Shown here piece by piece: positions 1 through 14,876 of a DNA stretch of 14,876 nucleotides. The DNA comes from Candidatus Hodarchaeum mangrovi (GTDB lineage Archaea > Asgardarchaeota > Heimdallarchaeia > Hodarchaeales > Hodarchaeaceae), in NCBI GenBank assembly GCA_016839515.1, contig JAEOUE010000304.1, forward strand, positions 1 to 14,876. The letters are read 5' to 3'. A program made the translations under genes and the position numbers. Within the stretch, counting starts at the first letter, position 1, and every line of letters begins with the position of its first letter. The notes below the pieces were generated by a model. That model was not told the DNA's origin, did no database searches, and worked only from the letters and a program-made list of their open reading frames with translations.

Positions 1-937
1 ATTTTAAACTCTCTTCTCCGACCTTTATTAATTCTTGAAATAAAGATATTATTTCAGGATTTGTCTCACTCTCTTCAAGATATCTTTTTACAGGTTCTTC
101 TTCATACGCAATAGCAGCATTTACTAGTCCAAAATCGCCTGAAATAGATCCTCGTTGAACTTCCCGTGCATATTTTTTGAAAATTTTCTTAAAAGAATTT
201 AAATGCCTCCCAATCTCTATTTCTAGCTCAGTCATTCTTATTCCCCTTTCCCTAGAGTTTCTTAATACAGGATCTTCAAAAAGTTTTGAAATATCATTTT
301 CTAAAGTCTGAATTTCATTTGAAAGGGATTCACGATCTAATTTTATAGCCTCCAATTCTACTTCAGTTGTTTCCTTCTTAATTTTCAGCTCTTCCACATC
401 TTTATATAACCCATCTAAATCCTCTAGAGCTTTTATAACGGTATATTCTGCTTTCTGTAACTCTCTAAGATCTTTTAAATCAGAGTTTAATTTTGAAATG
501 GGACCATATATCCCTCTTTTCTTAAGCATGAAGTCAAGTCCCATTATTGAATCTGTATTCTTTTGTTCACGGGTTGTATCATTCATTAAGCGAGATAATG
601 ATCTAATAAATTGATTAAAATCATTAAAACTTAAATTATTTTTAGGATTCGGAATATCAAACTCGTCAAACTGGTTATAAAGAAAATGAACGAGTGAATT
701 CATTGCCTTCAACGATCTAAAGTAGATTTTTCCTTTTTTAGTAATTTTTTGAACCCCCTCTTCAGTCAACTGAGGATCAGTTTCATCTAAAAGTTTTTTA
801 CTTCCCTCACGAACCTTTTCGGCTTCCTTTTGGACACTTTCCCGAATTCTACGACTTTTTTCATAGGCGATATTTATTGTTTTAAACATTTGTTTATTAA
901 TTTCTTCAATATACTCCGCTATTTCGCTTTTCGACAA
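1..937 (-). CDS. Hypothetical alpha-helical/coiled-coil protein (>312 aa, 3' end runs off the window)
   Basis: Not in the ORF track because it has no stop in the window. Manual translation gives an open frame from TTG at 937: MSKSEIAEYIEEINKQMFKTINIAYEKSRRIRESVQKEAEKV...LEDLDGLYKDVEELKIKKETTEVELEAIKLDRESLSNEIQTLENDISKL...IGRHLNSFKKIFKKYAREV...GEESLK. SD GGTGA at 946-942, 4 nt before the TTG. E/K/L-rich heptads. Confidence 0.85.
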   Translation of the reverse strand, partial: MSKSEIAEYIEEINKQMFKTINIAYEKSRRIRESVQKEAEKVREGSKKLLDETDPQLTEEGVQKITKKGKIYFRSLKAMNSLVHFLYNQFDEFDIPNPKNNLSFNDFNQFIRSLSRLMNDTTREQKNTDSIMGLDFMLKKRGIYGPISKLNSDLKDLRELQKAEYTVIKALEDLDGLYKDVEELKIKKETTEVELEAIKLDRESLSNEIQTLENDISKLFEDPVLRNSRERGIRMTELEIEIGRHLNSFKKIFKKYAREVQRGSISGDFGLVNAAIAYEEEPVKRYLEESETNPEIISLFQELIKVGEESLK

Positions 938-950
938 TGTATCACCAGTT

Positions 951-1343
951 CTACCTTTTTTTCGCGTAATAAAGTGAAGAGATAAATAATTCTTCCAGTC
1001 GGGTAATCATCAACTCAATATTCGCTTTTTCCTTCCCTTGTTTTTTAACTCCTATTATTAAATGATTAATTTCATTATTATTGGAATCAAAATTCATGAC
1101 TCCTGATAAAACAGGACGAACATTCTCCCAAATCTGTGGAATTACAGCTGATAATTGTTCAAATTCTGTATCTTCCATGTCAACTATTGATTCATTACTT
1201 CTTTTTAGTCCAGTTAATGGAAAACCATTTTCGTCACTAATAAATGATGCTATTACTAGATGTGAGTCGCTTCCCCCAGTCATTTGTTTAGAAAGGATAG
1301 CACGTAAGGATAATCGCATTTGACTCTCTAGATTTCGTTTCAA
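951..1343 (-). CDS. Roadblock/LC7 (MglB/LAMTOR-like) domain protein, 130 aa
   Basis: Pattern helix - VIASFISDENGFPL (roadblock beta1-turn-beta2, 'DxxGxxL') - helix EFEQLSAVIPQIWENVRPVL - three short strands (INHLIIG, IELMITR, LFISSLY). TTG start with SD-like AGGTTGA 7 nt upstream. Confidence 0.7.
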   Translation of the reverse strand: MKRNLESQMRLSLRAILSKQMTGGSDSHLVIASFISDENGFPLTGLKRSNESIVDMEDTEFEQLSAVIPQIWENVRPVLSGVMNFDSNNNEINHLIIGVKKQGKEKANIELMITRLEELFISSLYYAKKR

Positions 1344-1392
1344 TCTGCTTTCAACCTGCTAACTTTTCTTTATCCTAAGGATGTGGAAGATT

Positions 1393-1409
1393 TTTTTAAG
1401 AATTTTCGG
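1393..1409 (-). promoter_or_regulatory. Candidate BRE-TATA promoter for the roadblock/coiled-coil pair
   Basis: Minus strand reads CCGAAAATTCTTAAAAA (purine-rich BRE-like CGAAAA, then TATA-like CTTAAAAA) about 50 nt upstream of the TTG start. The AT-rich background makes this uncertain. Confidence 0.3.
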
Positions 1410-1555
1410 TATATTATCTTTTTAAAATTCTGGGTTGTCTTTTACCGGAAAAATTTGTCATGTCGAAAGGATAATATTTTCAAAGAAAGCAAACTCAAAA
1501 CGGCTAAGTTTGAAAATTAAAACTAATTCAAAGCCCTAATTGACGTGAAAGACCA

Positions 1556-4500
1556 ATGTTTCGAGTAAAATTCACGAAAAAACATATTTATTCCTATATT
1601 TCGCTTTTATTCTTTATTATTTTAACCTCTTCCCAGATATTCTTAATAAATGGATTTATCCCTATTTTCGGGGCACAAGATAAAGAAGAGATTATAGAAG
1701 ATTCAATTATTCCAAACACTCTAGTAAGTAAAATTACTAGTTCAACATATTTTATTGGTAATTATACTTTTGATCTCGAGAGTCTGTATAATTATGTTAA
1801 ATCTTTATATGACGATAAAGAAGCAATATTTTCTGAAGCCTCAAATGGGTATTATACATCTATTGCCACTTTTGAGGCTCTTTCAATATTACGGTTTTTT
1901 GGATTAGATTACTATCTATTTGGCCCTGATTGGCAGAAAAAAGAAGATGCTATTTCAAATAAACTTCTTGTGGATTTAAAGGATAAAGATTCTAATGGAT
2001 ATCTCCTATATGATCCTGAATCATCTGATATCAATGTTCTTTCACTAGAAGGAACCTACGGAGTTTTTGCCTCACTATGGGTTATGAATGAACTTTTTTT
2101 GCTAAAGCAAAGATCAATTAATTTAGTTGATTTTATTATCAATACAGTCTTTAATAAATCCGATAATACATTTCATGAAATCGGAAGAAAATCATCTATA
2201 AAGGCAACATTTCATGCTCTTACTATTCTTGACCTGGTTTATAAGTGTGTAACATTACCTGAACTTAGGGATACTGTAACTACTCCTGTTGTTACTCAAA
2301 ACGTAACCGATTTTATGGATAACCATTCTTTAAATATTTTTACATTCTTAGATAACCATTGGTCAAATAATTCAATTTTTGAATCTTCTGATCAACGTAA
2401 ACTTATCGAAAATAACTGGTATGCTTTACAATCAATCTCTATTCTCGAACGGTTTGCCAAAATTATAATGTCGCCTCTCCCAAAGACTTTGATAGATTAT
2501 AAAGCCTCAATAGTTAATTGGATTAAGGGATTAGTTGTCTCTGAAGGAACTACAATGGGTGGAATAACAGTATCTCCTTCTAAAATCAGTACTCTTTCAG
2601 AAACTGCATTAAGTTATGCCATATTAAATCTTCTTAATGCTACAAACGAACTGAATCATTCTGAAACACTTAAGTTTGTGTATTCGTCTCAATTTCTACG
2701 AAGAGAAAATAGAACGTTCACTGCAACGGAAGAATCGGATATTGGAGGATTTAGTTCAAATAACATTACTCACAGTAAAACTTATGTCAATAAACGAGTT
2801 AATATTCATGATACTTATTATGGTGCATTAACTCTCCTTCTAACTGGTGATTTATATTCATCTATTGATTTAGATCTAAAAACATCACACTATGAAGATA
2901 ATATAAACATTAATCAATCAAATTTTATTATTCAAGGAAATATAGCTGAAATTAAAGAAGGTTTTACTGTTTATAATTACAAGCCACATGGATCATTTGT
3001 AGTAAATAGTTTTATTGATAATTGGAATTTAACCCATTCTTCATATTTAGAAACAAATTCAGCATTTATTGGTAAATCTAATGCGATATATGTTGTGAAA
3101 TTAGAAAATGACACACTAGCTAATTATAACTGGATGCTAGGTCCCCATCAAATGATAAACCAATTAACTATACGAAATCTCCCAGTTATACGTCCTCCTA
3201 CTTTTAATTTCACTTCGGAGATCTTCGTTGGTTACTCAACGGTAACAAGATTTAATAATTCAATGATTAAGCCAGGTGATAATGTAACGGTTTCTATATT
3301 TCTCCAAAATCGAAGTGTATTATCTTATTCTGTTGAAAATATCACACAGGGGACTATTAGTGCTAATTTAACAACTCCAACTAACAACACAACATCATTT
3401 TTTATTAATAAGGCTATTAATGAAACATCGAGATCTATAGACTTTATTTGGAATTTAACCAAAGATAGTGTTCTTGGTTCATGGAAAATATCAATTTTTT
3501 ACAATAATGGTAGTTTCAAGCAATTTATTTCTATTTTTGTAGAAGTTGATGATGAAATTTTTCTTTATAATATCTCAAAACTACCAATTTATTATCCAGG
3601 TAATGAGTTGAATCTTAATGTATCATTGAAATATAGCTCTGGAGCTTTCACAGCTAGGGCAAATGCATCTTTAATTTTTTCGAGCAATATTACATCTAAT
3701 AAGAAGTTTATGGTAAAGTTATCTTACCTAGGTGGAAATGAATATTCTACAAATGAAAATTTTTGTCCTCTTCAATTTTTATATGGTTACTATAATGTTT
3801 CAGTTGAATTCACATGGAATCAGTCATCTGGTTATAAATTTGAAATTATAGAAAATGATAGCCTGCCTTTAATACGAATTGAAGGAATTCCAACCATTAC
3901 CAATGCCTCCCTCAAAACAGAATATCGAAATATTACTCAAATAGACAATAGTACAATATATATTGGAGAAACAATAAATTATTCATTAAGAATCGGTTTT
4001 TCTACTCCAGGTGGAGTTAATGAAATTAAAAATTCTTCCCTTATTAGTATAAATGCAGGAATCATTAATAATTCTCTTCCAGCTCAATTTATTCAAAACT
4101 ATAAAGTAGTTTATTCAAATGAAACAATACATATTAGTGCCCAAGTTAATCCAAACCTTCCAATTGCTACATTTGGATCCAGATTTCGTATTAAATCTGA
4201 ATGGAACAATTCTTTTGTTTTCATTCGTGATCCAATTAATACAAGCAATCCCTTAAATTATAATTTCACTTTAGATGGAAAATTGGTTATTACTGAAGTT
4301 GATTATGTTGCTTCAGATTATGAAGAGGGATTATCTACTTTTGCTCTTGATACTACATCTGTTCTGTCCATTTCTTTCAGAATTGGAAATGAAAAATTAA
4401 ATAATATCTCTGTTCCTAATCTCAATCTTTTTGGAATTTTGGACTATTTAGAACATCCAGGGAAGTTTAATCAATCTTTACCTAGTATTACAACTGCATT

Positions 4501-4753
4501 AGACCAAAATGAGTCTGCTATATACTTTTTAGCGTTCCCAACGACGAGTTTATCTCCCAATAAATATGAAATTACTATTTATACACATACTGCTTTAAAA
4601 GCTAACACATTAGTAGGAAAATTATATCCTGGCTTTAAAATAATAAAAACTTTCAACCCTCAACCACCTATTCAGCCTTATGAACTAATTATAATTATTC
4701 TCGGCATAAGTTTCATTGGCCTGGCTTATGTAAACGTAAAAAAGTTTCGTTAA
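1556..4753 (+). CDS. Large secreted, C-terminally anchored glycoprotein: prenyltransferase/squalene-cyclase-like (alpha/alpha)6 repeats plus several MG/Ig-like beta-sandwich domains, 1065 aa
   Basis: Basic N-terminus and hydrophobic signal/TM segment. Six helical repeats (ATFEALSILRFFG, GTYGVFASLWVMN, ATFHALTILDLV, NNWYALQSISILE, ETALSYAILNLLN, DTYYGALTLLLTG), the last preceded by FVYSSQ...GGFS. Beta-rich C-terminal half, roughly 40 N-x-S/T sequons by eye, C-terminal TM IIIILGISFIGLAYV followed by NVKKFR. Confidence 0.8.
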   Translation: MFRVKFTKKHIYSYISLLFFIILTSSQIFLINGFIPIFGAQDKEEIIEDSIIPNTLVSKITSSTYFIGNYTFDLESLYNYVKSLYDDKEAIFSEASNGYYTSIATFEALSILRFFGLDYYLFGPDWQKKEDAISNKLLVDLKDKDSNGYLLYDPESSDINVLSLEGTYGVFASLWVMNELFLLKQRSINLVDFIINTVFNKSDNTFHEIGRKSSIKATFHALTILDLVYKCVTLPELRDTVTTPVVTQNVTDFMDNHSLNIFTFLDNHWSNNSIFESSDQRKLIENNWYALQSISILERFAKIIMSPLPKTLIDYKASIVNWIKGLVVSEGTTMGGITVSPSKISTLSETALSYAILNLLNATNELNHSETLKFVYSSQFLRRENRTFTATEESDIGGFSSNNITHSKTYVNKRVNIHDTYYGALTLLLTGDLYSSIDLDLKTSHYEDNININQSNFIIQGNIAEIKEGFTVYNYKPHGSFVVNSFIDNWNLTHSSYLETNSAFIGKSNAIYVVKLENDTLANYNWMLGPHQMINQLTIRNLPVIRPPTFNFTSEIFVGYSTVTRFNNSMIKPGDNVTVSIFLQNRSVLSYSVENITQGTISANLTTPTNNTTSFFINKAINETSRSIDFIWNLTKDSVLGSWKISIFYNNGSFKQFISIFVEVDDEIFLYNISKLPIYYPGNELNLNVSLKYSSGAFTARANASLIFSSNITSNKKFMVKLSYLGGNEYSTNENFCPLQFLYGYYNVSVEFTWNQSSGYKFEIIENDSLPLIRIEGIPTITNASLKTEYRNITQIDNSTIYIGETINYSLRIGFSTPGGVNEIKNSSLISINAGIINNSLPAQFIQNYKVVYSNETIHISAQVNPNLPIATFGSRFRIKSEWNNSFVFIRDPINTSNPLNYNFTLDGKLVITEVDYVASDYEEGLSTFALDTTSVLSISFRIGNEKLNNISVPNLNLFGILDYLEHPGKFNQSLPSITTALDQNESAIYFLAFPTTSLSPNKYEITIYTHTALKANTLVGKLYPGFKIIKTFNPQPPIQPYELIIIILGISFIGLAYVNVKKFR

Positions 4754-5127
4754 AAAAAAATTAGAATCTCCTTTGACCATCTGGTAACCCAAAGTTCAAG
4801 GAATTCAATAATTTCTTTTATTTCTTCTTTGGTTGGTGATTGAAGATGAATTCCAAACAAGACAATTATATTTCTCTGAGTGATCTTTGCTATGGTACGT
4901 GCCAAAATTCCTGCTACTTCTGCATCACGATGATGAGGAAGTGAGAAAATATGATAATTTGCTGATTTTTCACCAGTAATCCGCAAATATGGAACTCCTA
5001 CTCCTATACCACCTAAATGATCATTTGGACCTTCTATATTAACTATTAAATCTTGACCTTTAAGATATACTCTGAGGTTGAAAACATACTCCTTAAATTT
5101 TGTACTCTGTCGAAATATTTCTTTCAG
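4750..5127 (-). CDS. LpdD-like (prenylated-FMN chaperone)/PAC4-fold protein, about 125 aa, probable CTG start
   Basis: The frame of ORF 4750..4986 stays open upstream to a TGA at 5136-5134 and adds KEIFRQSTKFKEYVFNLRVYLKGQDLIVNIEGPNDHLGGIGVGVPY. Family-type motifs: GxDLxVxIxG..HxG, PHHRD (cf. GH[RK][DE]), GIH, and TxEEI. No in-frame ATG/GTG/TTG lies upstream of 4986. CTG at 5127 is 6 nt after SD-like GGTTGTGA. Confidence 0.7.
   Translation of the reverse strand: MKEIFRQSTKFKEYVFNLRVYLKGQDLIVNIEGPNDHLGGIGVGVPYLRITGEKSANYHIFSLPHHRDAEVAGILARTIAKITQRNIIVLFGIHLQSPTKEEIKEIIEFLELWVTRWSKEILIFF
4752..4760 (-). terminator. Oligo-T (T9) tract at a convergent gene junction, possible archaeal terminator element
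   Basis: A9 on the plus strand (T9 on the minus strand) sits where two convergent genes share TTAA (4750-4753) for their stop codons. The tract lies just inside the minus-strand ORF end, so a terminator role is uncertain. Confidence 0.25.
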
Positions 5128-5304
5128 AAATAATCACAACCGAAAAATGATGAAAAACATGAATTTCTGTTTGGATTAAGGTGATTCTGTATCTGTCAAA
5201 ATTTTAAGATTAGAGCAGAAAACCTAAATTTTGAATAGGATAAGTCATATATCCACTATCTAGAATTACCTTTAAGGAATTACATTTTCGATAAGAATTA
5301 TGAA

Positions 5305-5724
5305 CTATTCTTCAAGACTTGAGATGTCCTCCTCTAGGACTCTATTCTCTTTTATTAGTCGGAGTTTTTCAGTTTCTAAGTTTTCTAGATTTGTTTTGGT
5401 ATTTTTTATTTCATTTGCTAATTCCATGTCTCTTTTCTCAATTGTAACCTTCTTTTCATTCAATTGAGATCGAATCATCTCTAAGTTTGCTATTTCTTCA
5501 TTAAGAGATGTTTTTTTCATTTTCAAATCCTGAATTTTCGTTTCATATTCAAGTTTGTTCTTCTTAAGATTTTCTTGAAGATTTGAGAGATCTATTTGTA
5601 ATTCTTCTATAGTTTTCCCTTTTTTTTCTTTTGATTCTACAATTAATTGTTCTACTCCTGGAGGAGAACATACTGGACAAGGTGCTCTTATAAAATAAGA
5701 ACCACATCGTTGACATGTAGGCAT
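5305..5724 (-). CDS. C4 zinc-finger plus coiled-coil protein, 139 aa (paralog B)
   Basis: MPTCQRCGSYFIRAPCPVCSP (C-x2-C-x8-C-x2-C), then about 100 aa of heptad repeat. ATG start with SD AAGGAG inside the end of the upstream gene, and a 2-nt gap to that gene. Confidence 0.85.
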   Translation of the reverse strand: MPTCQRCGSYFIRAPCPVCSPPGVEQLIVESKEKKGKTIEELQIDLSNLQENLKKNKLEYETKIQDLKMKKTSLNEEIANLEMIRSQLNEKKVTIEKRDMELANEIKNTKTNLENLETEKLRLIKENRVLEEDISSLEE

Positions 5725-5726
5725 TT

Positions 5727-6188
5727 TTAGTTTTCTCCTTCATTATTACTCTTTGTCTTAATATAAGTTAATTTCTCTTGTAATTCTTCTTTTCGTGATC
5801 TCAATGATTCTATTTCTTGTCTTAATAATTGTTGATTTTGTTTAAGTTCGTTTTTCATAGATTCATTAAGTTTGACACGAGACTCAAGATCAGAAACTTT
5901 AGTTTTAAGACTATCAACCTCAGTCCTTAATTTTTGTTCTGTTTCTTCTAGATTAGTTAATTCTCCACCAATATTTTTTAGTTCCGATTCTTTTTCTGCT
6001 GAAAGAATTTTAAGTTCATTTTCTCCTTTCTCTATTGAATCTAAAAGTTCTAATGGGTCAATGATTCGGACATTCTTTGATTTTTCAATCTCTATTGTTC
6101 TCACAGGGGAATTAGGAGAGTCTTCTGGAGTGCAATGAGGACAAGAGCTTTCTGAGAAATAAGATCCACATTTCGAGCATATTGGCAA
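5727..6188 (-). CDS. C4 zinc-finger plus coiled-coil protein, 153 aa (paralog A)
   Basis: MPICSKCGSYFSESSCPHCTP (C-x2-C-x8-C-x2-C), then a long heptad repeat. TTG start with SD AGGTGA 6 nt upstream. Confidence 0.85.
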   Translation of the reverse strand: MPICSKCGSYFSESSCPHCTPEDSPNSPVRTIEIEKSKNVRIIDPLELLDSIEKGENELKILSAEKESELKNIGGELTNLEETEQKLRTEVDSLKTKVSDLESRVKLNESMKNELKQNQQLLRQEIESLRSRKEELQEKLTYIKTKSNNEGEN

Positions 6189-6360
6189 TTATTTTCACCT
6201 AATTTAATTCTAACATATGATTCTATAATTACTACATCAAGAGAGGTAAATTCTCAATGGTGCTAGTCCATCTTAGATCTGATCTTTTTCTTTATAAAAC
6301 TATCAAATTATATTCTTTACCTGATAAATAATAGATATACATAAAGAGTAATTAAACGAT

Positions 6361-6375
6361 AAAACGATTATATAT
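6361..6375 (+). promoter_or_regulatory. Candidate BRE-TATA promoter for the helicase
   Basis: AAAACGA followed by TTATATAT (6368-6375), about 40 nt upstream of the GTG at 6414, in a divergent intergenic region. A second TATA-like palindrome TTTATAAA at 6291-6298 could serve the opposite operon. Confidence 0.4.
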
Positions 6376-6413
6376 CGATTTAAATTGAAACCCAATTAGG
6401 TTGTTGCATAACA

Positions 6414-9035
6414 GTGAGCTCTTTATATAATATTCGTTCAATTGTATCTACAATCATACTACCGTTTAAACAAGAGAACACTGTACAAATTTTATGTTTT
6501 TCACGTGGAAGATTAAATAAGAGAAAACCAATTTACAAAGGTAGAATTGAGTTTTTGTTTAAACATGATTCATTATGGAGACCACGACGAATATTATGGG
6601 AAGAACAGGGAAAATGGAAAGCATATCCCCCTAAAAATACTATTCAAGAAATTTTTGTGCAATCAAGTATTATTATTTTAGATAAAAACCTCACCTCGAG
6701 AGAGAAAGAGGGGATAAAAAATTATTGTCATGATTTTGCCATAAAGACCAAGCTTATAGAAGGTGAATTGTGTCCATTTTGCCTAATTCATGAAGAAATT
6801 ACTTGGTTATCAGCCTCAGATAATTATTTAGCGTATAATCGAATAATTTGTAAGTCCTGTGCAATTTCTGAATTAGAAAAGGAATTAAAAGCTAAAAAAG
6901 TGGATTTATTAGCTAGTCCAGGGTTTAAGAGATATGCTCTTAATTTGCTTAATAGATTTCAAGATTCTAATGTGGTTGCTGAATTTCTAACGAAGGGAGA
7001 TTCAGACTTAAGTGAAATTACTATGGTTAATCAGATTCATCAAATGTCAGTTACAGAAAGAAACAAAACACTTCAACCAGTATCAAAGTTTGAACTTCCC
7101 TTAATTATTTCCCAGTCATTAAAATTACGAAATATTAATTTTTTCCTCCCGATTCAAGTTTTAGCTTTAAAAAAGGGTTTATTGCAAGGAAAAAGTCTTC
7201 TTGTGATTGCGAACACCAGTGCAGGAAAAACTTTGATTGCAGAGATCGCAGGAATTAACCATGTTATGTCTTTGAAAAAAATGATTTATATCGTTCCCTT
7301 AGTTGCCTTGGCAAATACTAAATTTGAAGATTTCAAGAATTATTACGGTTCTCAAGTCAAAGTAGGACTAAGAATAGGTAAGTCACGAATTTTCGATTCT
7401 GAAGAAGAAAGAAAAGAATTTTATGCAAATCGATATAGTATAAAGGACTCAGATATCATTATTGCCACATATGAAGGTCTTGATTTGTTGTTAAGAGCTG
7501 GAGATATTGATTTTGATCAAATAGGGTGTATTATTATCGATGAAATTCAATCTCTAGCAGATCCAGATCGAGGCCCAACTCTTGATTGTTTAATAGCAAA
7601 AATTCGAACTTACACAAAAAAAGCACAGATTTTATGCCTTTCAGCAACTATTGGAAACCCCATAGAACTAGCACAAGATCTTTCTTTAGATTTAGTAACT
7701 TATGATCAGAGACCAGTCTCTCTTGAACAACATGTACTAATTTCAAGAAGTTTTCAAGATAAACTACGTCAAATCTATAATTTAATAAAAAATGAAACCC
7801 AGTTTGTATCTTCGACAGGATTCAGAGGTCAAACAATAATTTTTACAAATTCACGAAGAAAAACAGCAGAAATCACTGATTATTTACAAGAATGTGGAAT
7901 AAGAGAAGCAAGAGCTTATCATTCAGGACTTTCTTATAAACTTCGAAAACGAATTGAACAAGCGTTCACAAAGGGAGAATGTCCTGCAATTGTCAGTACA
8001 TATGCATTAGGTGCAGGAGTCGATTTTCCAGCATCACAGGTAATTTTTGAATCCTTAATGATGGGAAATAAACTTCTCGATCCGAATACTTTTACCCAAA
8101 TGCATGGAAGAGCTGGAAGATTAGGAAAACATGATCGTGGCCGAGCTGTTCTGTTATGTTTAGGAGAATCAGTTTCTTCTCTTGATGCACGGAGTGAAAT
8201 AGAAATCGCATTTGAACTTTTGAAAGCAGAACTTATTTCTATCACTCCTAATTATGATGAAAACTCATGTGGGGAACAAATATTATCAATTTGCTCGTCT
8301 AAACCTCAAATTTCTCCTAAGGAAGCTTATAGAATATATAATAAAATGATTGGAACAAAGAATTTTAATTTCAGACATGTCACCAATAGTTTGATTCAAA
8401 ATTCATTAATAAAAATAAAAACACATAACAAATTAAGATATCTAAACTTAACATCTTTGGGTCGTGCAGCAGTCTTATCATTTTTTTCTCCATTAAAAGT
8501 AATATCAATTAAAAAGCATATTCAAAGACAGGAACACTTTTTATCTATTGCTCTTGAATCTAATCCTCCTCAGAATGTTTATATCTCACGAAAACTCCAT
8601 ACTTATCTAGAAAAGACTTATCATATGCGCTTTTCAACTCGACTTATCAATAGTCCTGTTTTAGATGTTATGACTTCGTCCTTGCAGGGAAAAGAAGGAA
8701 CAGAGCTAAATAAATGGTGTTTAACTTTATTTTCTAAATGGACTCAACAGATCTTTAATTGTAAATGTAGAGAAAATCCATATTGCGATCATGGATCTCA
8801 AAGGATTGGTAAACTAATCCTTGACGAGAGACTTGCAGGGAAAGGAATTAACCAGATTTCTGCTACAATGAGTAGATATGAGTTATTACTTTATCCAGGG
8901 GATATTCTCTCATTTTTGAACAATTTAATCCATGAATTAGAAGGAATTGAACGTATAGCACAGGCTCTCAAGAACCTAAAACTTGCTAAAACAATAACAA
9001 TCATGATAAATAAGATTGAAATCCCTCCAAATTGA
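6414..9035 (+). CDS. Archaea-specific Ski2-like SF2 helicase (ASH-Ski2/Eta, COG1202 type, DUF5814-like C-terminus), 873 aa
   Basis: Motif I ANTSAGKT, Ia VPLVALAN, ATYEGLD, II DEIQ, III SAT, IV IFTNSRR, YHSGL, V ALGAGVDFPASQVIFESL, VI QMHGRAGR. N-terminal Zn motif CPFC...CKSC. C-terminal CKCRENPYCDHG and YPGD typical of this family. Confidence 0.9.
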   Translation: MSSLYNIRSIVSTIILPFKQENTVQILCFSRGRLNKRKPIYKGRIEFLFKHDSLWRPRRILWEEQGKWKAYPPKNTIQEIFVQSSIIILDKNLTSREKEGIKNYCHDFAIKTKLIEGELCPFCLIHEEITWLSASDNYLAYNRIICKSCAISELEKELKAKKVDLLASPGFKRYALNLLNRFQDSNVVAEFLTKGDSDLSEITMVNQIHQMSVTERNKTLQPVSKFELPLIISQSLKLRNINFFLPIQVLALKKGLLQGKSLLVIANTSAGKTLIAEIAGINHVMSLKKMIYIVPLVALANTKFEDFKNYYGSQVKVGLRIGKSRIFDSEEERKEFYANRYSIKDSDIIIATYEGLDLLLRAGDIDFDQIGCIIIDEIQSLADPDRGPTLDCLIAKIRTYTKKAQILCLSATIGNPIELAQDLSLDLVTYDQRPVSLEQHVLISRSFQDKLRQIYNLIKNETQFVSSTGFRGQTIIFTNSRRKTAEITDYLQECGIREARAYHSGLSYKLRKRIEQAFTKGECPAIVSTYALGAGVDFPASQVIFESLMMGNKLLDPNTFTQMHGRAGRLGKHDRGRAVLLCLGESVSSLDARSEIEIAFELLKAELISITPNYDENSCGEQILSICSSKPQISPKEAYRIYNKMIGTKNFNFRHVTNSLIQNSLIKIKTHNKLRYLNLTSLGRAAVLSFFSPLKVISIKKHIQRQEHFLSIALESNPPQNVYISRKLHTYLEKTYHMRFSTRLINSPVLDVMTSSLQGKEGTELNKWCLTLFSKWTQQIFNCKCRENPYCDHGSQRIGKLILDERLAGKGINQISATMSRYELLLYPGDILSFLNNLIHELEGIERIAQALKNLKLAKTITIMINKIEIPPN

Positions 9036-9062
9036 AACTCATATATAATTATGTCTCTATTC

Positions 9063-9242
9063 CTAGTTATTTCGTGAAGAATGACTTTTCCAATATTTTA
9101 AAAATAGTCCTAAGCCTGCAAACGCTATTAGAAATCCTACAATATAAAAAAAAGCTGAAATAACATCACCTGCTGTTCCTCCAAATCCTGCAAGAAATAA
9201 TCCAATAATAATTAAAAAACCGCCAAGTATTCGCTCATCCAT
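9063..9242 (-). CDS. Small glycine-rich two-TM membrane protein, 59 aa
   Basis: Below the ORF-track size cutoff. MDERILGGFLIIIGLFLAGFGGTAGDVISAFFYIVGFLIAFAGLGLFLKYWKSHSSRNN*. ATG at 9242 with SD AGGTG 6 nt upstream. Two hydrophobic segments and a basic tail. Fills the gap between the PGM and helicase genes. Confidence 0.8.
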   Translation of the reverse strand: MDERILGGFLIIIGLFLAGFGGTAGDVISAFFYIVGFLIAFAGLGLFLKYWKSHSSRNN

Positions 9243-9297
9243 ATTCTACACCTAAATATTTAATTGTGTTTATTAACTACTTTATTAAAAATACTGA

Positions 9298-10680
9298 TCA
9301 ACTATGTCTTTCTATCTCTCCTGTTATGAGTTCCTGCATATAATCTCGGTATTCATCTAGTTTATGCAAATTAATTGCCTCAGCTCGCGCGGAAATAACT
9401 GGCTCAGTACCACTTTGACGAATAAGTATCCATCCATCATCAAATTCTGCTCTTATACCATCAATAGTAATAGAATTTACTGCTTCTTTTGAAAGTAATT
9501 CAACCAAATTGGAAACAACTTTAGATTTGATTTCCTCTGGACAATGTATCCGAATTTCTTCTGTTGAAGGGTATACAGGAAGTTGTTCTAAAAGCTCTGA
9601 AAAGGATTTGCTGGATTTAGATAGAATTTCAATCATTTTTAAGGCTGAATATACTGCATCATCAAATCCATAATAATCTAAACCAAAATAATAATGACCA
9701 CTCAGTTCTCCTGCAAAAATTGCTCCTTTTTTTAAAAGGGTTTCATGAATCCAGGAGTGTCCAACCTTAGTAAAGGTAACTGTTGCCCCAATATTAGTAA
9801 GATATTCGTAAGTCGCTCTAGAAGTCTTAATATCAATTAAAATCTCTGATTTAGGTTTTTTATTTAATAAATATCTTCCAAAAAGCATAATTACTTGATC
9901 AGGCTTTACTATATTCCCTTTTTCGTCAACAAAACCTATTCTGTCTCCATCAGCATCGAAACCAATTCCAACATCAATTTTTTGTTCTTTTATTAATTCA
10001 ACAAGGAATTTTAATGAAGATTCTTTTGCTGGATCTGGAATCATTACTGGAAATCGCCCATCTGGTTCTGAATGTAGCGATCTAACTATCAATCCTTTCG
10101 ATTCAAGTAAGGAGAGAATAGGAAAACAAGTTCCATTCCCTAGTTCAACCCCTACGATCAATTTGGAGCTTGGATTAAAAGACTTATTCTGATATGTCCA
10201 ATATTGTACATTATTTATTTTATCTATATTTAATTGTTTTCCATAACTCATTATTGGGGCAGAGAAAAGTAAATTTTCTTTTAATTTCCTTTTAACTTCC
10301 TGAAACAGATTATTTATATGAAATGAAATTCCATCTTCATTGCAAACTTTAATTCCATTATATTCAATTGGATTATGACTTGCTGTTACCATTATCCCTC
10401 CATTGATTTCCTTATTATTGACTGCTAAGAAATATATTGTAGGTGTGGTACATATACCAACATCAAGAACATTACAACCAGCTTCCAGTAATCCTGTCGT
10501 TAGTGCTGATTTTATTAAAGGGGTGGATATTCTGACGTCACCACCTATAACTATATTCCTACCTATGCCAAATTGGTTTCCTAAGCATTTTCCAAGATTC
10601 ATTGCCGTAGTTGAAGAAAAATCGGTTGGAAATTTCCCTCTAATGTCATAAGTTTTAAAGATATGATCCTGAAAGTCCAT
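9298..10680 (-). CDS. Phosphomannomutase/phosphoglucomutase (alpha-D-phosphohexomutase, PMM/PGM type), 460 aa
   Basis: IFKTYDIRG, catalytic TASHNP, metal loop FDADGDR, sugar loop GELSGH, phosphate loop RQSGTEP. SD AGGTGA before the ATG. Confidence 0.95.
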   Translation of the reverse strand: MDFQDHIFKTYDIRGKFPTDFSSTTAMNLGKCLGNQFGIGRNIVIGGDVRISTPLIKSALTTGLLEAGCNVLDVGICTTPTIYFLAVNNKEINGGIMVTASHNPIEYNGIKVCNEDGISFHINNLFQEVKRKLKENLLFSAPIMSYGKQLNIDKINNVQYWTYQNKSFNPSSKLIVGVELGNGTCFPILSLLESKGLIVRSLHSEPDGRFPVMIPDPAKESSLKFLVELIKEQKIDVGIGFDADGDRIGFVDEKGNIVKPDQVIMLFGRYLLNKKPKSEILIDIKTSRATYEYLTNIGATVTFTKVGHSWIHETLLKKGAIFAGELSGHYYFGLDYYGFDDAVYSALKMIEILSKSSKSFSELLEQLPVYPSTEEIRIHCPEEIKSKVVSNLVELLSKEAVNSITIDGIRAEFDDGWILIRQSGTEPVISARAEAINLHKLDEYRDYMQELITGEIERHS

Positions 10681-10707
10681 CTTTTCACCTTTAACTGTTA
10701 TTTTAGA

Positions 10708-11481
10708 TTAAATATATTCATCTAATGTAGGTTTTTTTGGATATATTATATCTTGGAGAGGTTTCCATTCCCAATTATAACGGATAAATGTGTATTTACG
10801 GTCATAAATTTTCTTATGATTTTGTTGAAAGAAGTTCATAAGGTTTTTATCTTTAACATTTGGATATCCTAGTCCAAGTGTATTCTCAGGAAGCTGTTCT
10901 TGTCTCTCTATTTCTCGTAATTTTTGATCTCTAATGAATTTAGCGATAATAGAAGCTACTGAAACAATAGGAAACAGCTGGTCAGCTTTTTTTGATATAA
11001 AAACACTTTTTTTAATTAAAGATTTATCATTTAAAGAAAAACCAATCCCGTGTTTAGTTAGAATGCGTTTGTACCAAAATTCTTTACCCAAACTATGAAA
11101 ATACATCTTTAATTCGTGCATGGTATATTTTGGGGTGGAAATCGTGTCAATTTTCACAGTTTCACTACTTAGTCCAAGAATTAACCGACCAATAGCTCTA
11201 ATTTCAAGTAAATTCAAATTATCCTTTGGTCGTTTGTCTAACACATTATCAATTTCTATTGCTGTAATTTCCTCTACTTTATATTCGATTGAAGAGTCTT
11301 GTAATAATTTCGCTAGTTTTTCTCTTTCTTTTCTCCCCTCAATTCCTTGAAATAATTTAGAATCCTTTATACCTTGAGTTTGATTTAAAATATCCTCTTG
11401 AAAGGTGACTCCAACTATTATTAACGGACCAAAAACACTCCCTCTTCCTGCCTCATCTATCCCAGCTATTATTTGAGACAA
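10708..11481 (-). CDS. rnhB: Ribonuclease HII, archaeal type
   Basis: AGIDEAGRG, KDSK, LNLLE, KAD..PIVSVASIIAKFIRD, GLGYP, IRYNW. PIP-box-like C-terminus KPTLDEYI. TTG start 1 nt after the egsA stop. Confidence 0.93.
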   Translation of the reverse strand: MSQIIAGIDEAGRGSVFGPLIIVGVTFQEDILNQTQGIKDSKLFQGIEGRKEREKLAKLLQDSSIEYKVEEITAIEIDNVLDKRPKDNLNLLEIRAIGRLILGLSSETVKIDTISTPKYTMHELKMYFHSLGKEFWYKRILTKHGIGFSLNDKSLIKKSVFISKKADQLFPIVSVASIIAKFIRDQKLREIERQEQLPENTLGLGYPNVKDKNLMNFFQQNHKKIYDRKYTFIRYNWEWKPLQDIIYPKKPTLDEYI

Positions 11482-11482
11482 A

Positions 11483-12571
11483 TCAATCTATTCCAGTTAT
11501 TTCAAGAGCATTAATAAGTGCTGATTTTGTTATTCCTTCCGAAAGTATAGTATAACGATTTGGACGAATTTTTTGAGCAACATTGACTGCATTTAAGAAA
11601 ATATCCCTATCTAGTTTTAGATCTTTCAATGTTAAGGGTGCTTTGACTCTTTCCAATACATTTGGGATTCTTTGCCAATCTCCACCATGTAAATACATCA
11701 TCAATATAGATACTAATCCAGTCTTATGCCCATGAGCGATATTTAATCTCTCTTTTTCTGCAACTTTATCCAGAGCATGACTTACTAAATGTTCTGACCC
11801 ACTTGCTGGTCTTGAAGATCCTGCTATACACATTGCAACCCCAGAACTAGCCAAAGCTTTCAATAGGTCTCTTGCTCCCTTTTCACTAATAAAACCCTGA
11901 CCTAATGACGAAACCCTATCTGAGACCAAAGTTGCAGTCATTTCTGCAAACGTTGCAGCATAAATATCAAACTTTTCGCCTTTTAATCTGTTTGCTAACC
12001 TCCAATCTCGAATTGCAACCCATTTAGATAAAACATCACCTACTCCAGCAGAAATTGATGCTTCAGATGCTTGGGAAACAAGTTTTGTATCTCCTATTAT
12101 TGCTAAAGGCGATGTTGGAATATAACTTGGAAAATAGCCTGTTTTTCCTTCTCTCTTTATTTTTTCACGAAGAAGAAAATTAATATATGGACTAGAAAAA
12201 CCATCATGACTTGCATTAGTTGGAATAGCTATATAATCCCTTTTAGCGATGCTAGCAATAACTTTGACATAATCTATTATCTTTCCTCCCCCTACAGCCA
12301 TTAACTGAGTTTCGAAATCGGGTAAGTTAGTAGCATAGTTATTTAGATCTTCCAAAGTGATAGAATTAGAAAGAGAAATATGATCATATGTAATATGATC
12401 TTCTAATTCAGGTATAACTAAGTCATGAGTGATTTTTTGTGTTTCAGTTTTTCCACTAAAAATTATGATTTTTGATATACCAATGTCGTCACAAACGCTT
12501 GAAATTTTCTTGATAGCGTTCGGTCCAAAAGCTACTCTTCTAGAAACTACAATCTCTTGTATAGAGTTAAT
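11483..12571 (-). CDS. egsA: sn-glycerol-1-phosphate dehydrogenase, about 362 aa, probable ATT start
   Basis: GGGKIID, PTNASHDGFSSP, GVGD..SKWVA..DW, GSSRPASGSEHLVSHALD, HG. The frame is open upstream of 12355 to a TAG at 12586-12584 and adds the family-like N-terminus NSIQEIVVSRRVAFGPNAIKKI...IIIFSGKT. SD AGGAGGA at 12585-12579 lies 7 nt before ATT at 12571. Product call is firm; the start is inferred. Confidence 0.92.
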   Translation of the reverse strand: MNSIQEIVVSRRVAFGPNAIKKISSVCDDIGISKIIIFSGKTETQKITHDLVIPELEDHITYDHISLSNSITLEDLNNYATNLPDFETQLMAVGGGKIIDYVKVIASIAKRDYIAIPTNASHDGFSSPYINFLLREKIKREGKTGYFPSYIPTSPLAIIGDTKLVSQASEASISAGVGDVLSKWVAIRDWRLANRLKGEKFDIYAATFAEMTATLVSDRVSSLGQGFISEKGARDLLKALASSGVAMCIAGSSRPASGSEHLVSHALDKVAEKERLNIAHGHKTGLVSILMMYLHGGDWQRIPNVLERVKAPLTLKDLKLDRDIFLNAVNVAQKIRPNRYTILSEGITKSALINALEITGID

Positions 12572-12578
12572 ATGTTTA

Positions 12579-12585
12579 TCCTCCT
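12579..12585 (-). promoter_or_regulatory. Shine-Dalgarno site for egsA
   Basis: AGGAGGA on the minus strand, 7 nt upstream of an in-frame ATT. No ATG/GTG/TTG is in frame for a further 72 codons. Confidence 0.7.
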
Positions 12586-12625
12586 AACAAGGTTTTTTAT
12601 AATTTTTATCTTTTCTCTTGAGTTC

Positions 12626-13717
12626 TTAATTCATTTTTTTTCTATTATTTCCAATTTCTGATTCATCAGATGAAAATTTTTTCTTTATGCGGAATATTTC
12701 CATACCACCAAGCTTTAATGAGGCATAACTTCCTAAAAGACCTAGCATTATAGTTTTTGCAAATCGATCTATAAGAGCAATGCTTACTGCTCCACTACCA
12801 GGATAATTAGGTGTTCCATAAAGAATTATCGCTACTACAGCTTCATACTCTCCCATGGCTCCGGGTAAAATCGGAATAATAAATGTTATATTTCCTGCAC
12901 ACGACGCTGCTATTACCCATGGGAGATCAATAACATTCAAATATCCTTCATGAGCTGGAAAGACAGTGAATGCAATAACATACAACATTATTCCTTCAAT
13001 TATCCATATGGAAGCTGAAGTGATTATTCCTGAAATTAAAAGATTTGGTTTTAATCGAAGATCATGTAATCCATTTTGAAAGGAGTTATAAACCGATTGA
13101 AGTCTTTCACTAATAAATGACGGGAAAAAGTCTATTAGAGTGTTTCCTATATCCGGAAATATAAGAAGAGCTGCTAAAATTATCAATCCAGCAAAAGAGA
13201 AGACAAATAAAAAAATTATAAGCTGCTGAATTATTTTTGAATCGTTAAGAGAGGTAAGAGAGTTTCCAAGTAAAAAAAGAGTTCCTGTTACAACAATAAG
13301 TAATCCAATTATACTTAAAACCTGTTCGATTACTATAGATGAAAAAGTATCGGAATATTTGGTATTATAATTTCGTTTTAAAGAGTACATCCTCACTGCT
13401 TCCCCAGCGCGAGCAATTGTAAAGAGATTTATCATTAAAGCTGATATAGTGGGAAGAAATAACTTGGTAAAGTTGAGATCAACACCTTGAGCGAGTAATA
13501 ATAATTTCCAGCGATAGGTACGCACAATCATATCAACAAAATAAAGTGAAATAAGTGAAATAGATAATACAAACATACCCCAGAATCCTAATTGGAGTAT
13601 ACTTTCAATAAGCATTATAGGTTGAACATACAATAAAATAATTAACAAAACAACTAATGTAAGTGAATATATTATTAAACTTGTTAACTTATTAGAAACA
13701 CGCATAAAAACCCTCAC
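12626..13717 (-). CDS. UPF0104 / lysylphosphatidylglycerol-synthase-TM (flippase-like, AglD2-type) membrane protein
   Basis: RTYRWKLLL, N.FTIARAGEAVRMYSLK, SSIVIEQVL, IPILPGAMGEYE, ALIDR and many TM helices. The GTG overlaps the argS stop (GTGA). ATG at 13705 is an alternative start. Confidence 0.88.
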   Translation of the reverse strand: MRVFMRVSNKLTSLIIYSLTLVVLLIILLYVQPIMLIESILQLGFWGMFVLSISLISLYFVDMIVRTYRWKLLLLAQGVDLNFTKLFLPTISALMINLFTIARAGEAVRMYSLKRNYNTKYSDTFSSIVIEQVLSIIGLLIVVTGTLFLLGNSLTSLNDSKIIQQLIIFLFVFSFAGLIILAALLIFPDIGNTLIDFFPSFISERLQSVYNSFQNGLHDLRLKPNLLISGIITSASIWIIEGIMLYVIAFTVFPAHEGYLNVIDLPWVIAASCAGNITFIIPILPGAMGEYEAVVAIILYGTPNYPGSGAVSIALIDRFAKTIMLGLLGSYASLKLGGMEIFRIKKKFSSDESEIGNNRKKMN

Positions 13718-14876
13718 ATTTCGTCAACTAAGGAAATTCCAAGTATTTTAAGGACATTTTCCATTACTATGAGAAAGCATTCAACTATCAAAATTCTGAA
13801 TGCTTTCAGGTCTGGAGATTCAGCATTTAAAACAGGAGACGTTTCATAAAACTTATTAAAAGAGGAGGCTAATTCATTTGCATATTTAGTCATTTGAATG
13901 GGTTGGAAAACAGACGCGGCCTCTTCAACAATAATGGAAAATCTAAGGAGATCTAATATTAATTGTTTCTCTTGGAGAGAGATTTGTTCCTCATTAATTA
14001 TATACTGTTTTTTTACCTTATGCTTTCCCATTTTCTCAAGAATCTTATTAGCACGAACATGAGAATAAACTAGAAAGGGACCAGTATCCCCTTCCAAGGA
14101 AGTTGCATCTTCAATTCGAAATTTAATTTCTGTTTCAGTAGAAAATTTGGCAAGCCAATAGCGAATGGCACCCACTGATAATTTTAAAGTAATTTCACGT
14201 TTTTTAGAATAATCTGACTCTAAATCAGGACGTTTTAAAGAAATCACTTTGTAAGCTTCATCGAATGTGTCTTGGAGTACTGCATCAGCCCAAGCCCTTT
14301 CTTCATACCAGTTTCCAGATCTCCCCGAGAAACGGGCATGGGGAGCATTGACATGCTTATAAGATAAATGAAACGAATTTTCATATTTTTCATTCATATT
14401 CAATAGTTTTAAGGTGTGTCGCACAATTTCCTGAAGAAATTCTTGTTCTACGCCTATTACATTACAAACTCTGTTAGCTTTTCCGAATTCAATAGATAGA
14501 TATTTTGCAACATTTAAATTACTACTACTCCAGAGCTTTTTACCTTCACCACTTTCATTTTTTTGTTGAACGATCCCATTACTAATTAATGAAGCTTTGA
14601 CAATTCCAAACTTCCAAAATTGTAGAGCAACATCATGCGCTACATAAGTTGGAACTCCATTCGATCTTACAAAGATTTTAACAGGGTTTTTTTTATCTTG
14701 AAACTCAGGAAGATCACCTAAATAAGCCACAAAGCAACCTTTATTTTCCCCTTTGGTTTCCCAAGTAAAAGAACTATTTTTTTCTAATAAATGTAATGTT
14801 TCTTCCCATATTCCTGATTTAGATATGTCTGATTCCCAAACAAGATAATCATAAGTAATTCCATATTGCCATGCAG
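13714..14876 (-). CDS. argS: Arginine--tRNA ligase, C-terminal part (5' end outside the window)
   Basis: Frame open to the window edge (AWQYGITYDYLVWESDI...KGCFVAY). RSNGVPTYVAHD, NVIGVEQ, HLSY, FSGRSG, GAIRY, EGDTGPFLVYSHVRA..I, FNKFYE..PVL, DALR anticodon domain and terminal LGI...DEM. Confidence 0.96.
   Translation of the reverse strand, partial: AWQYGITYDYLVWESDISKSGIWEETLHLLEKNSSFTWETKGENKGCFVAYLGDLPEFQDKKNPVKIFVRSNGVPTYVAHDVALQFWKFGIVKASLISNGIVQQKNESGEGKKLWSSSNLNVAKYLSIEFGKANRVCNVIGVEQEFLQEIVRHTLKLLNMNEKYENSFHLSYKHVNAPHARFSGRSGNWYEERAWADAVLQDTFDEAYKVISLKRPDLESDYSKKREITLKLSVGAIRYWLAKFSTETEIKFRIEDATSLEGDTGPFLVYSHVRANKILEKMGKHKVKKQYIINEEQISLQEKQLILDLLRFSIIVEEAASVFQPIQMTKYANELASSFNKFYETSPVLNAESPDLKAFRILIVECFLIVMENVLKILGISLVDEM

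Follow-up and report, generated by a model that had tools for sequence, protein, structure and literature searches.

An undescribed, order-specific gene pair of Hodarchaeales that probably encodes a heteromeric, two-headed coiled-coil rod or adaptor

We analysed a stretch of DNA of 14,876 nucleotides (nt) from the Asgard archaeon Candidatus Hodarchaeum mangrovi (GCA_016839515.1, contig JAEOUE010000304.1, positions 1 to 14,876 of the forward strand; this whole stretch is referred to here as the window), following up a preliminary description, made from its letters alone, of two adjacent genes, here called A and B, whose products each join a short cysteine-bearing head to a long coiled coil. We found that A and B are genuine, conserved genes that belong to no described family (an Asgard COG table may already list them under a number), and that the A-B pair is restricted, among the genomes searched, to the window's order, Hodarchaeales. 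Overall, the two products probably make up an undescribed, order-specific heteromeric rod or adaptor with two heads. We infer their zinc binding, parallel orientation, oligomeric state and all of the functions discussed below.

The TTG that opens gene A (Table 1) is the sole start available in its open frame and is preceded, 6 nt upstream, by an AGGTGA site, and 2 nt separate the stop of A from the start of B. The list of open reading frames and the sequence itself confirm two such closely spaced genes with a common MPxCxxCGSYF head, as the preliminary description had it; the shared opening reads MP[IT]C..CGSYF....CP.C[TS]P, which gives a C-x2-C-x8-C-x2-C spacing starting at residue 4. When all six frames of the 4.0-Mb genome were scanned (frames of at least 60 amino acids (aa)), C..C..[YFW].....C..C turned up in three open frames only (A, B and a third head-bearing protein), so the motif is not a chance occurrence. 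When A was compared with B by BLASTP, the head alone aligned (12/21 identical, E 4e-10). A 14-nt stretch of the two heads, coding for CGSYF, had been noted as 13/14 identical (6170-6157 vs. 5706-5693), a count that is correct but carries little weight because it is expected for identical residues in 31% GC DNA. Within each family conservation declines from head to linker to coil, with a mean pairwise identity of 0.79 in A and 0.83 in B for the head, 0.64 (residues 22-55 of A) and 0.54 (residues 23-45 of B) for the linker, and 0.33 in both for the coil. Judged from the head-only alignment and from these identities, A and B are ancient paralogues in which selection is concentrated on the finger, and the old duplication suggested earlier stands.

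In the head of A, residues C4, C7, Y10, C16 and C19 are invariant over a 22-row alignment, as are S27, P28, V29, T31, R41, P45 and L48 in the linker region; the 19-row alignment of B has M1, P2, C4, C7, G8, Y10, R13, C16, P17, C19 and P21 invariant in the head, and Q26, L42 and L46 nearly so in the linker region. The linkers are paralogue-specific (TPDDSP.SPV.T......RIIDP..L..SIE in A; PPGVEQL..DS...KGK...ELQ in B), and the A linker is strongly acidic; the A head, like the B head, is acidic to neutral. AlphaFold2 (AF2) models of A and B, built on the family alignments, contain a knuckle with two beta bridges (predicted local distance difference test (pLDDT) 62-66 in A, 76-80 in B), a stretch of poor order (residues 26-33, pLDDT <50 in both) and one helix each, at residues 45-152 of A (mean pLDDT 84.8; 84-98 over residues 41-150) and 39-138 of B (mean pLDDT 88.3; 91-98 in the helix). 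The heptad phase is unbroken for ~90 residues in A and in B, with Leu at most d positions, and a coil helix of ~100 residues corresponds to ~15 nm. The uninterrupted coiled coil of about 100 aa that had been described directly behind the head is thus upheld as regards the continuity of helix and heptads, but a conserved non-helical linker of ~17-23 residues lies between head and helix. As also described, neither protein has an enzyme or membrane domain, there being no Pfam or NCBIfam match to one in A or B and no hydrophobic segment seen in either sequence. Conserved charged residues occur in the coil core of A (K66, E84, K112) and at a positions in the coil of B (K85, K92, K120), and a comparison of these positions between A and B revealed no clear hetero-specific register. 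Beyond the coil, most B orthologues (L070-L081) have a charged, E/R/Q-rich C-terminal tail of 20-90 aa with REEEERRQ-type repeats; the B of the window has no such tail, stopping where the coil ends, and is short like its closest relatives.

A word-index search with A returned 24 proteins, the window's own included, and all of those with a source label were from Hodarchaeales; the same search with B returned 8, labelled Heimdallarchaeota, Hermodarchaeota or Hodarchaeales. We then ran profiles of A and B over 400 genomes of the phylum. The A profile was matched from its first positions in 20/21 same-genus genomes (one such match, in G060, is cut by a contig end) and in G079, a genome of a sister family of the same order; at E<=0.001 it matched 98/400 genomes in all, the remaining matches starting at profile position 46 or later and covering coil only. 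For the B profile, full-length matches came from 19/21 same-genus genomes and, two of them, from G079; the rest likewise covered coil only, from position 28 or later. A and B lie side by side on one strand in 19/19 same-genus genomes that have both, and in G079. There the upstream copy is B-like (71 vs. 37 bits) and the downstream copy, with its head removed, is A-like (19 vs. 3.5 bits); two distinct paralogues therefore seem to be older than the split of the two families, and the order of A and B is possibly swapped in G079. One genome that carries the genus label, G066, is without A, without B and without an orthologue of ASH-Ski2, the helicase encoded beside the pair in the window; we ruled it out as a natural co-loss of pair and helicase, as no copy of the large neighbour gene turned up in it and its phosphomutase shows 30% identity, where the others show ~60%. 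Because G066 is not a close relative despite its label, the absence of the pair there says little.

An exhaustive profile search of 1.84 billion representatives gave 6027 matches at E<=0.001, almost all of them to giant coiled-coil proteins. The best 150 of these comprised 130 long coiled-coil proteins (478-4853 aa) in which the match starts no earlier than profile position 27, 18 short proteins that open with the head, and 2 head-less fragments; five of the 18 are more divergent head-plus-coil members, one of which carries a Hodarchaeota label. When metagenomes were scanned with a DNA pattern for this divergent head type, the single locus found was a chance match within a large unrelated gene.

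The two genes are tightly coupled wherever they occur together. They share a strand in 15/15 loci, including the window, and the gap from the A stop to the B start is 1-4 nt in 14 loci (the window among them) and 25 nt in L081, the locus of G079. A GGAG- or GAGG-type motif lies within 20 nt upstream of the B start in 15/15 loci, and in most of them this site is encoded by the conserved C-terminal Leu-Gly codons of A. The pair is divergent from ASH-Ski2 in 13/13 same-genus loci and in L081 (14/14 examined), where every other flanking gene differs; the idea that the genes always occur as a pair and beside this helicase holds within the lineage that has them (15 loci coupled, 14 divergent). In the excerpted text of PMC10946056, ASH-Ski2 is an archaea-specific branch found in 38/42 Asgard genomes, and aRNase J, with which it partners in Euryarchaeota, is lacking from Asgard; on this account the partner of ASH-Ski2 is missing there. 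A partnership of A and B with ASH-Ski2 is plausible from gene order. On its other side, the helicase gene of the window adjoins a gene for a 59-aa two-helix membrane protein (9063-9242, minus strand), a look-alike of which (L083 1078-1374, plus strand) lies directly upstream of the helicase in G078, a sister-family genome in which the pair was not found; this gene may be a more widely conserved neighbour of the helicase.

Prediction of the A-B complex with both family alignments gave a score of 0.58 (runs 0.59, 0.58 and 0.58) vs. 0.00 for the best of three controls, with a partner pLDDT of at least 78 and at least 79% of contacts agreeing between runs. The calibration of this score grades it as 'weak support': 18/157 solved complexes passed at 0.60 or below, the range that also holds both of the mismatched pairs that passed (2/215). 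The heterodimer proposed in the preliminary description thus scores well above its control, but with a graded support that is weak; as modelled, the complex is compatible with a heterodimer and does not single it out from homodimers or higher oligomers. Reading A and B as a heteromer leans more on the conserved translational coupling of two diverged paralogues than on this score, and on balance we favour A-B being a real heteromeric pair.

We reasoned that A and B could together make up a lineage-specific coiled-coil adaptor with two heads, each contributing one subunit, an explanation to which we give somewhat less than an even chance. The two proteins are made from one tightly coupled message, with a gap of 1-4 nt and the ribosome-binding site for B inside the last codons of A, and their helices would pair in parallel as a heterodimer. 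The resulting rod would have at one end a binding surface composed of two knuckles with bound zinc and of the two linker motifs, which differ from each other, while the rod itself may be a spacer or dimerisation device. By gene order, the likeliest partner would be the divergently transcribed ASH-Ski2 RNA helicase, with which A and B might work by analogy with the zinc-knuckle/coiled-coil cofactors of eukaryotic Ski2-like helicases. That the pair is an adaptor acting with ASH-Ski2 is a tentative suggestion, and we consider it rather unlikely.

Several observations weigh against the adaptor and its link to the helicase. With respect to zinc, the second cysteine pair reads C-x-C or C-P-C, and not C-P-x-C, in several A orthologues, and the A head is modelled with low confidence (pLDDT 62-66). 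The complex score of 0.58 is weak by its calibration, with passes by mismatched pairs in the same range, and the prediction covered A+B only, against controls that were unrelated natural proteins and probably not coiled coils. As for the helicase, same-genus synteny amounts to one observation and adds little, since all 13 of those loci keep the window's gene order over 13 genes, and the link rests on about two independent lineages. In G078 two Alba-like genes and a gene for a small membrane protein lie upstream of the helicase, and a profile search of this assembly (85% complete) found no A-B pair. ASH-Ski2 is present in 76/81 genomes of the class, and a zinc/coiled-coil pair lay upstream of it in 0/7 loci examined outside the order, 5/7 of which have instead a same-strand gene of 321-324 aa; since the pair is not at these loci, ASH-Ski2 clearly works without A and B elsewhere.

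Table 1. Coordinates of genes A and B, their parts and the adjoining features in the window.
Feature	Positions	Strand	Details
Gene A	5727-6188	minus	153 aa; TTG start 6188-6186; TAA stop 5729-5727 included
A head, residues 1-21, MPICSKCGSYFSESSCPHCTP	6126-6188	minus	spacing C-x2-C-x8-C-x2-C
A linker, residues 22-44	6057-6125	minus	acidic, Pro/Ser-rich; runs into helix-capping RIIDP motif
A coiled-coil helix, residues 45-152	5733-6056	minus	AF2 helix and heptads
Gene B	5305-5724	minus	139-aa paralogue; ATG start 5724-5722; TAG stop included at 5305 end
B head, residues 1-21, MPTCQRCGSYFIRAPCPVCSP	5662-5724	minus	invariant cysteines, 19 rows
B linker, residues 22-38	5611-5661	minus	PGVEQL..DS...KGK type
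B coiled-coil helix, residues 39-138	5311-5610	minus	AF2 helix and heptads
GGAG ribosome-binding site for B	5735-5738	minus	within last codons of A
Divergent intergenic region A / ASH-Ski2	6189-6413	no strand	24% GC; carries AGGTGA 6200-6195
ASH-Ski2-type helicase	6414-9035	plus	DUF5814 98.4 bits, DEAD 97.1 bits, Helicase_C 62.8 bits (Pfam)

The head is found on other proteins as well. Scanning 185,579 species genomes for a DNA pattern that encodes P.C..CG.Y.....CP.C gave 54 loci, which on reading comprised 19 A/B genes, 12 other archaeal genes that open with the motif, 1 internal archaeal site, and 22 matches in bacterial, often GC-rich DNA that are either internal cysteine motifs or out of frame. 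Two of these 12 are from sister-family genomes, where the head opens a 964-aa protein that has no Pfam match (L114 666-3557, minus strand) and a 669-aa protein in which a disordered region of ~440 aa and an ABC ATPase follow (L122 2854-4860, plus strand; ABC_tran 128.6 bits); in L102, L117 and L128, also among the 12, it is followed by a disordered region and a C-terminal helix. G078 and G079 also have 230-aa and 243-aa proteins that open with it, the former combining the head with the C-terminal half of a Ras fold (L174 844-1533, plus strand; 27 bits, cut-off 21.6; the 243-aa protein is at L175 1501-2229, plus strand). The third head protein of the window's own genome, of ~220 aa, lies on contig C208 (L003 964-1665, minus strand; head MSPVCKKCRNYVMDFPCPHCG) and has a Pro-rich spacer of ~130 aa after the head and then a C-terminal coiled coil; its head is 9/20 identical to that of L117 (E 6e-6). 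That one domain recurs at the very start of unrelated proteins is most simply explained by a targeting or docking device, and we read the knuckle, from its sequence contexts, as a portable module that may act as a targeting or partner-binding head rather than a catalytic one. A far bolder extension would make the MP.C..CG.Y knuckle a Hodarchaeales invention that brings the Ras-like protein, the ABC ATPase, the large helical protein and the A-B rod to one membrane or protein hub, with A-B as a two-headed tether on the Atg14 plan, perhaps ancestral to Atg14; we regard this as a long shot.

Searches of family, structure and metagenomic resources yielded nothing beyond generic coiled coil, in agreement with the earlier statement that A and B fall in no described family. 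All Pfam and NCBIfam matches of A and B were below the family cut-offs and covered the coil only, except those to ATG14 (4-141), DZR (3-26) and Nop10 (B 3-20). A Foldseek search of the PDB with the A model gave 0 matches at E<=10. A profile search of the PDB gave 232 matches at E<=1, of which the best 60 were mostly coiled coil and all started at query position 33 or later, none of them extending over the head; the best scores in the ESM Atlas (0.78 and 0.76) were under the level of a lead. We found no literature joining Hodarchaeales, zinc ribbon and coiled-coil. Two further families also stay far under their cut-offs: SMC/Rad50, suggested by the JGI label 'chromosome segregation ATPase' on one relative, matches the coil only and nothing of its ABC-type ATPase head domains (TIGR02169, 21.2 bits vs. 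a cut-off of 729; PDB SMC match at query 55-154), and crescentin (Rod_CreS, PF19220) reaches 25 bits vs. a cut-off of 100, with 3/22 A members at E<=0.01.

Other explanations of the pair must be weighed against a two-headed adaptor. A and B could instead be structural or cytoskeletal rods that each form homodimers, or filaments and lattices in the manner of bacterial coiled-coil-rich proteins and crescentin, with the heads anchoring them to a surface and the helicase adjacency being inherited gene order. The best Pfam matches are to rod families such as Rod_CreS, the profile finds its 6027 matches among proteins of the long coiled-coil type, the full collinearity of the same-genus loci makes adjacency weak evidence, most B orthologues have the charged tail, and the head is present on unrelated proteins too. 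However, these matches are far under their cut-offs and confined to the coil, conservation is strongest in head and linker and not in the rod, and the tight coupling of diverged paralogues in 15/15 loci is more readily explained by a heteromer of fixed ratio than by two separate homomers; such rods are possible, if unlikely. C4 zinc ribbons with a spacing like that of A and B often bind nucleic acids or ribonucleoprotein proteins, and the pair could accordingly be a dimeric regulator whose knuckles themselves bind nucleic acid, such as RNA substrates or the DNA of the shared divergent promoter, without contacting the helicase. The position of the pair at a 225-nt AT-rich divergent intergenic region and a weak echo of Nop10 (NCBIfam, E 0.16, B residues 3-20) would suit this. 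Nevertheless, the heads range from acidic to neutral, the linker of A is strongly acidic, no basic patch lies beside the A knuckle, no nucleic-acid-binding family in Pfam or NCBIfam matched A or B, and the fusion of the head to an ABC ATPase and a Ras-like domain is atypical for a DNA-binding finger, all of which makes a regulator improbable.

A likeness in layout to eukaryotic Atg14 had also been pointed out; taken as kinship, it would make A and B homologues of the coiled-coil scaffold (Atg14/Vps38, and Beclin) of the class III phosphoinositide 3-kinase (PI3-kinase) complex. The layout is indeed there, with C4, C7, C16 and C19 followed by the helix at 45-152, the host lineage is Asgard, the ATG14 model (PF10186) matches A below threshold with an E of 7.9e-5, and Atg14 itself has, in the excerpt of PMC2928018, conserved N-terminal cysteine repeats that are needed for endoplasmic reticulum localisation and not for Beclin binding. 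On the contrary side, that match scores 22.3 bits vs. a cut-off of 33.2 and places residues 4-141 of A on positions 1-107 of the 347 of the profile, leaving the ATG14 body (108-347) unmatched and A ending at residue 153 after the coil; B has no match, and at E<=0.01 the model finds 4/22 A members and 0/8 B members. Run genome-wide, it finds nothing at E<=0.01 in the window's genome and gives sub-cut-off matches in 6/14 control prokaryotes. In the same genome (91% complete), the best match to PI3-kinase (PF00454, PI3_PI4_kinase) has 17.9 bits vs. a cut-off of 27.1, and Beclin/APG6 (PF04111), a model that is also silent in its controls, has no match. No Atg14, UVRAG or Vps38 chain is among the best 60 of the 232 PDB profile matches, and in a literature search for Asgard and Atg14 neither term is in a title or abstract among the matches listed. 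We thus ruled out Atg14 kinship on score, inconsistency within the family, the genome-wide scan with controls, coverage, and the failure to find PI3-kinase or Beclin; largely refuted by sequence, it is extremely improbable. Because the match is sub-threshold and inconsistent and the genome has no PI3-kinase or Beclin match, convergence, which the preliminary description had entered as a caveat, is the better reading of the likeness. The zinc ribbon of archaeal Nop10 usually has two C-x2-C pairs with a spacing similar to that of A and B. The pair might then be trimmed relatives of Nop10, or of the Asgard-specific, ESCRT-I-like Znr_CC_PH_SB family (cog.011556; zinc ribbon, coiled coil, PH domain and steadiness box) named in a figure legend of PMC10936438. 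However, A and B end after the helix without PH domain or steadiness box, their neighbours are not ESCRT genes, and the genome has its own Nop10 elsewhere, with 41.7 bits and another cysteine pattern; A and B are absent at E<=1 from the Pfam Nop10 scan (PF04135), and the NCBIfam model (NF009623) gives 12 bits vs. a cut-off of 68. A Nop10 origin was ruled out, and trimmed relatives of either kind are very improbable. The genome's Nop10 (C138, L177 1498-1671, plus strand) reads C-x-C ... C-x2-C.

Among archaea, Hodarchaeales are commonly held to be the nearest relatives of eukaryotes, and proteins that are conserved in this order but lack a family may underlie lineage-specific cell biology. The A-B pair is a concrete candidate for what ASH-Ski2 works with in Asgard archaea that have no aRNase J, a question raised by the excerpted text of PMC10946056, and the common knuckle on an ABC ATPase and a Ras-like protein in the sister family points to a shared targeting device. 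If the pair is just a structural rod, it would be a modest lineage-specific family. Both proteins are small and soluble and have no membrane segments, so the pair can be tested at low cost.

Other genes of the window were noted in passing. A proteasome-assembly-chaperone-like (PAC_bac-like) gene (4750-5135, minus strand) is listed as 78 aa from a TTG at 4986, and its frame is open upstream to ~5135; the upstream frame encodes GQDLIVNIEGPNDHLGGIGVGVPY, a match to the N-terminal half of 11 orthologues, each ~125-150 aa long, and the true start may be non-canonical because this stretch has no ATG, GTG or TTG. At 2-937 and 951-1343 (both minus strand) lies an adjacent pair that encodes a 312-aa helical protein (weak BAR_3 match, E 0.0016, below cut-off) and a 130-aa protein without a family match; it is kept in 11/13 same-genus loci, the other two of which stop at or within the preceding gene. 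Positions 1556-4753 (plus strand) encode a 1065-aa Asn-rich protein that has an N-terminal hydrophobic stretch, a C-terminal hydrophobic anchor, and weak, below-cut-off echoes of MG2 and a prenyltransferase toroid. It is 44-50% identical in 12/13 same-genus loci, and L072 holds the last ~190 residues only.

Compared with known systems, A and B resemble Atg14/Barkor in having two C-x2-C pairs at the extreme N-terminus and then a long coil, which in Atg14 pairs with the coil of a partner; they differ from it in that they have no C-terminal domain, both carry the head, and the match is sub-threshold and inconsistent. The nearest described Asgard architecture is that of Znr_CC_PH_SB, which is likewise Asgard-specific and sets an N-terminal zinc ribbon before a coiled coil, whereas A and B, compared by description only, are without its PH domain and steadiness box and have as neighbours the helicase, the PAC-like gene and others, with no ESCRT genes. 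Haloarchaeal CdpC, with which a 2026 preprint, as excerpted, shows that proteins of archaeal division can dock by way of zinc ribbons, illustrates the range of zinc-ribbon roles and is not a relative of A and B. Generic archaeal N-terminal zinc ribbons (DZR/zinc_ribbon and CPxCG small proteins) share C-x2-C-x8-C-x2-C at the protein start, and our pattern scan found such a start-of-protein knuckle in Bathyarchaeia, Thermoplasmata and other archaeal genes; DZR (PF12773) reaches 14 bits vs. a cut-off of 27.3 (E 0.06, residues 3-26), and in contrast to these ribbons MP.C..CG[SG]Y[YF]....CP.C.P with a coil was found nowhere outside the window's order except on contigs that carry a Hodarchaeota or Heimdallarchaeota label. 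Air1/2 and ZCCHC8 are small zinc-knuckle proteins, some of them coiled-coil dimers, that adapt a eukaryotic Ski2-like helicase to its substrates. Their knuckles are CCHC and those of A and B are C4, and with no sequence relation between them the analogy is a functional one only, its basis being a conserved A-B gene pair beside a Ski2-like helicase.

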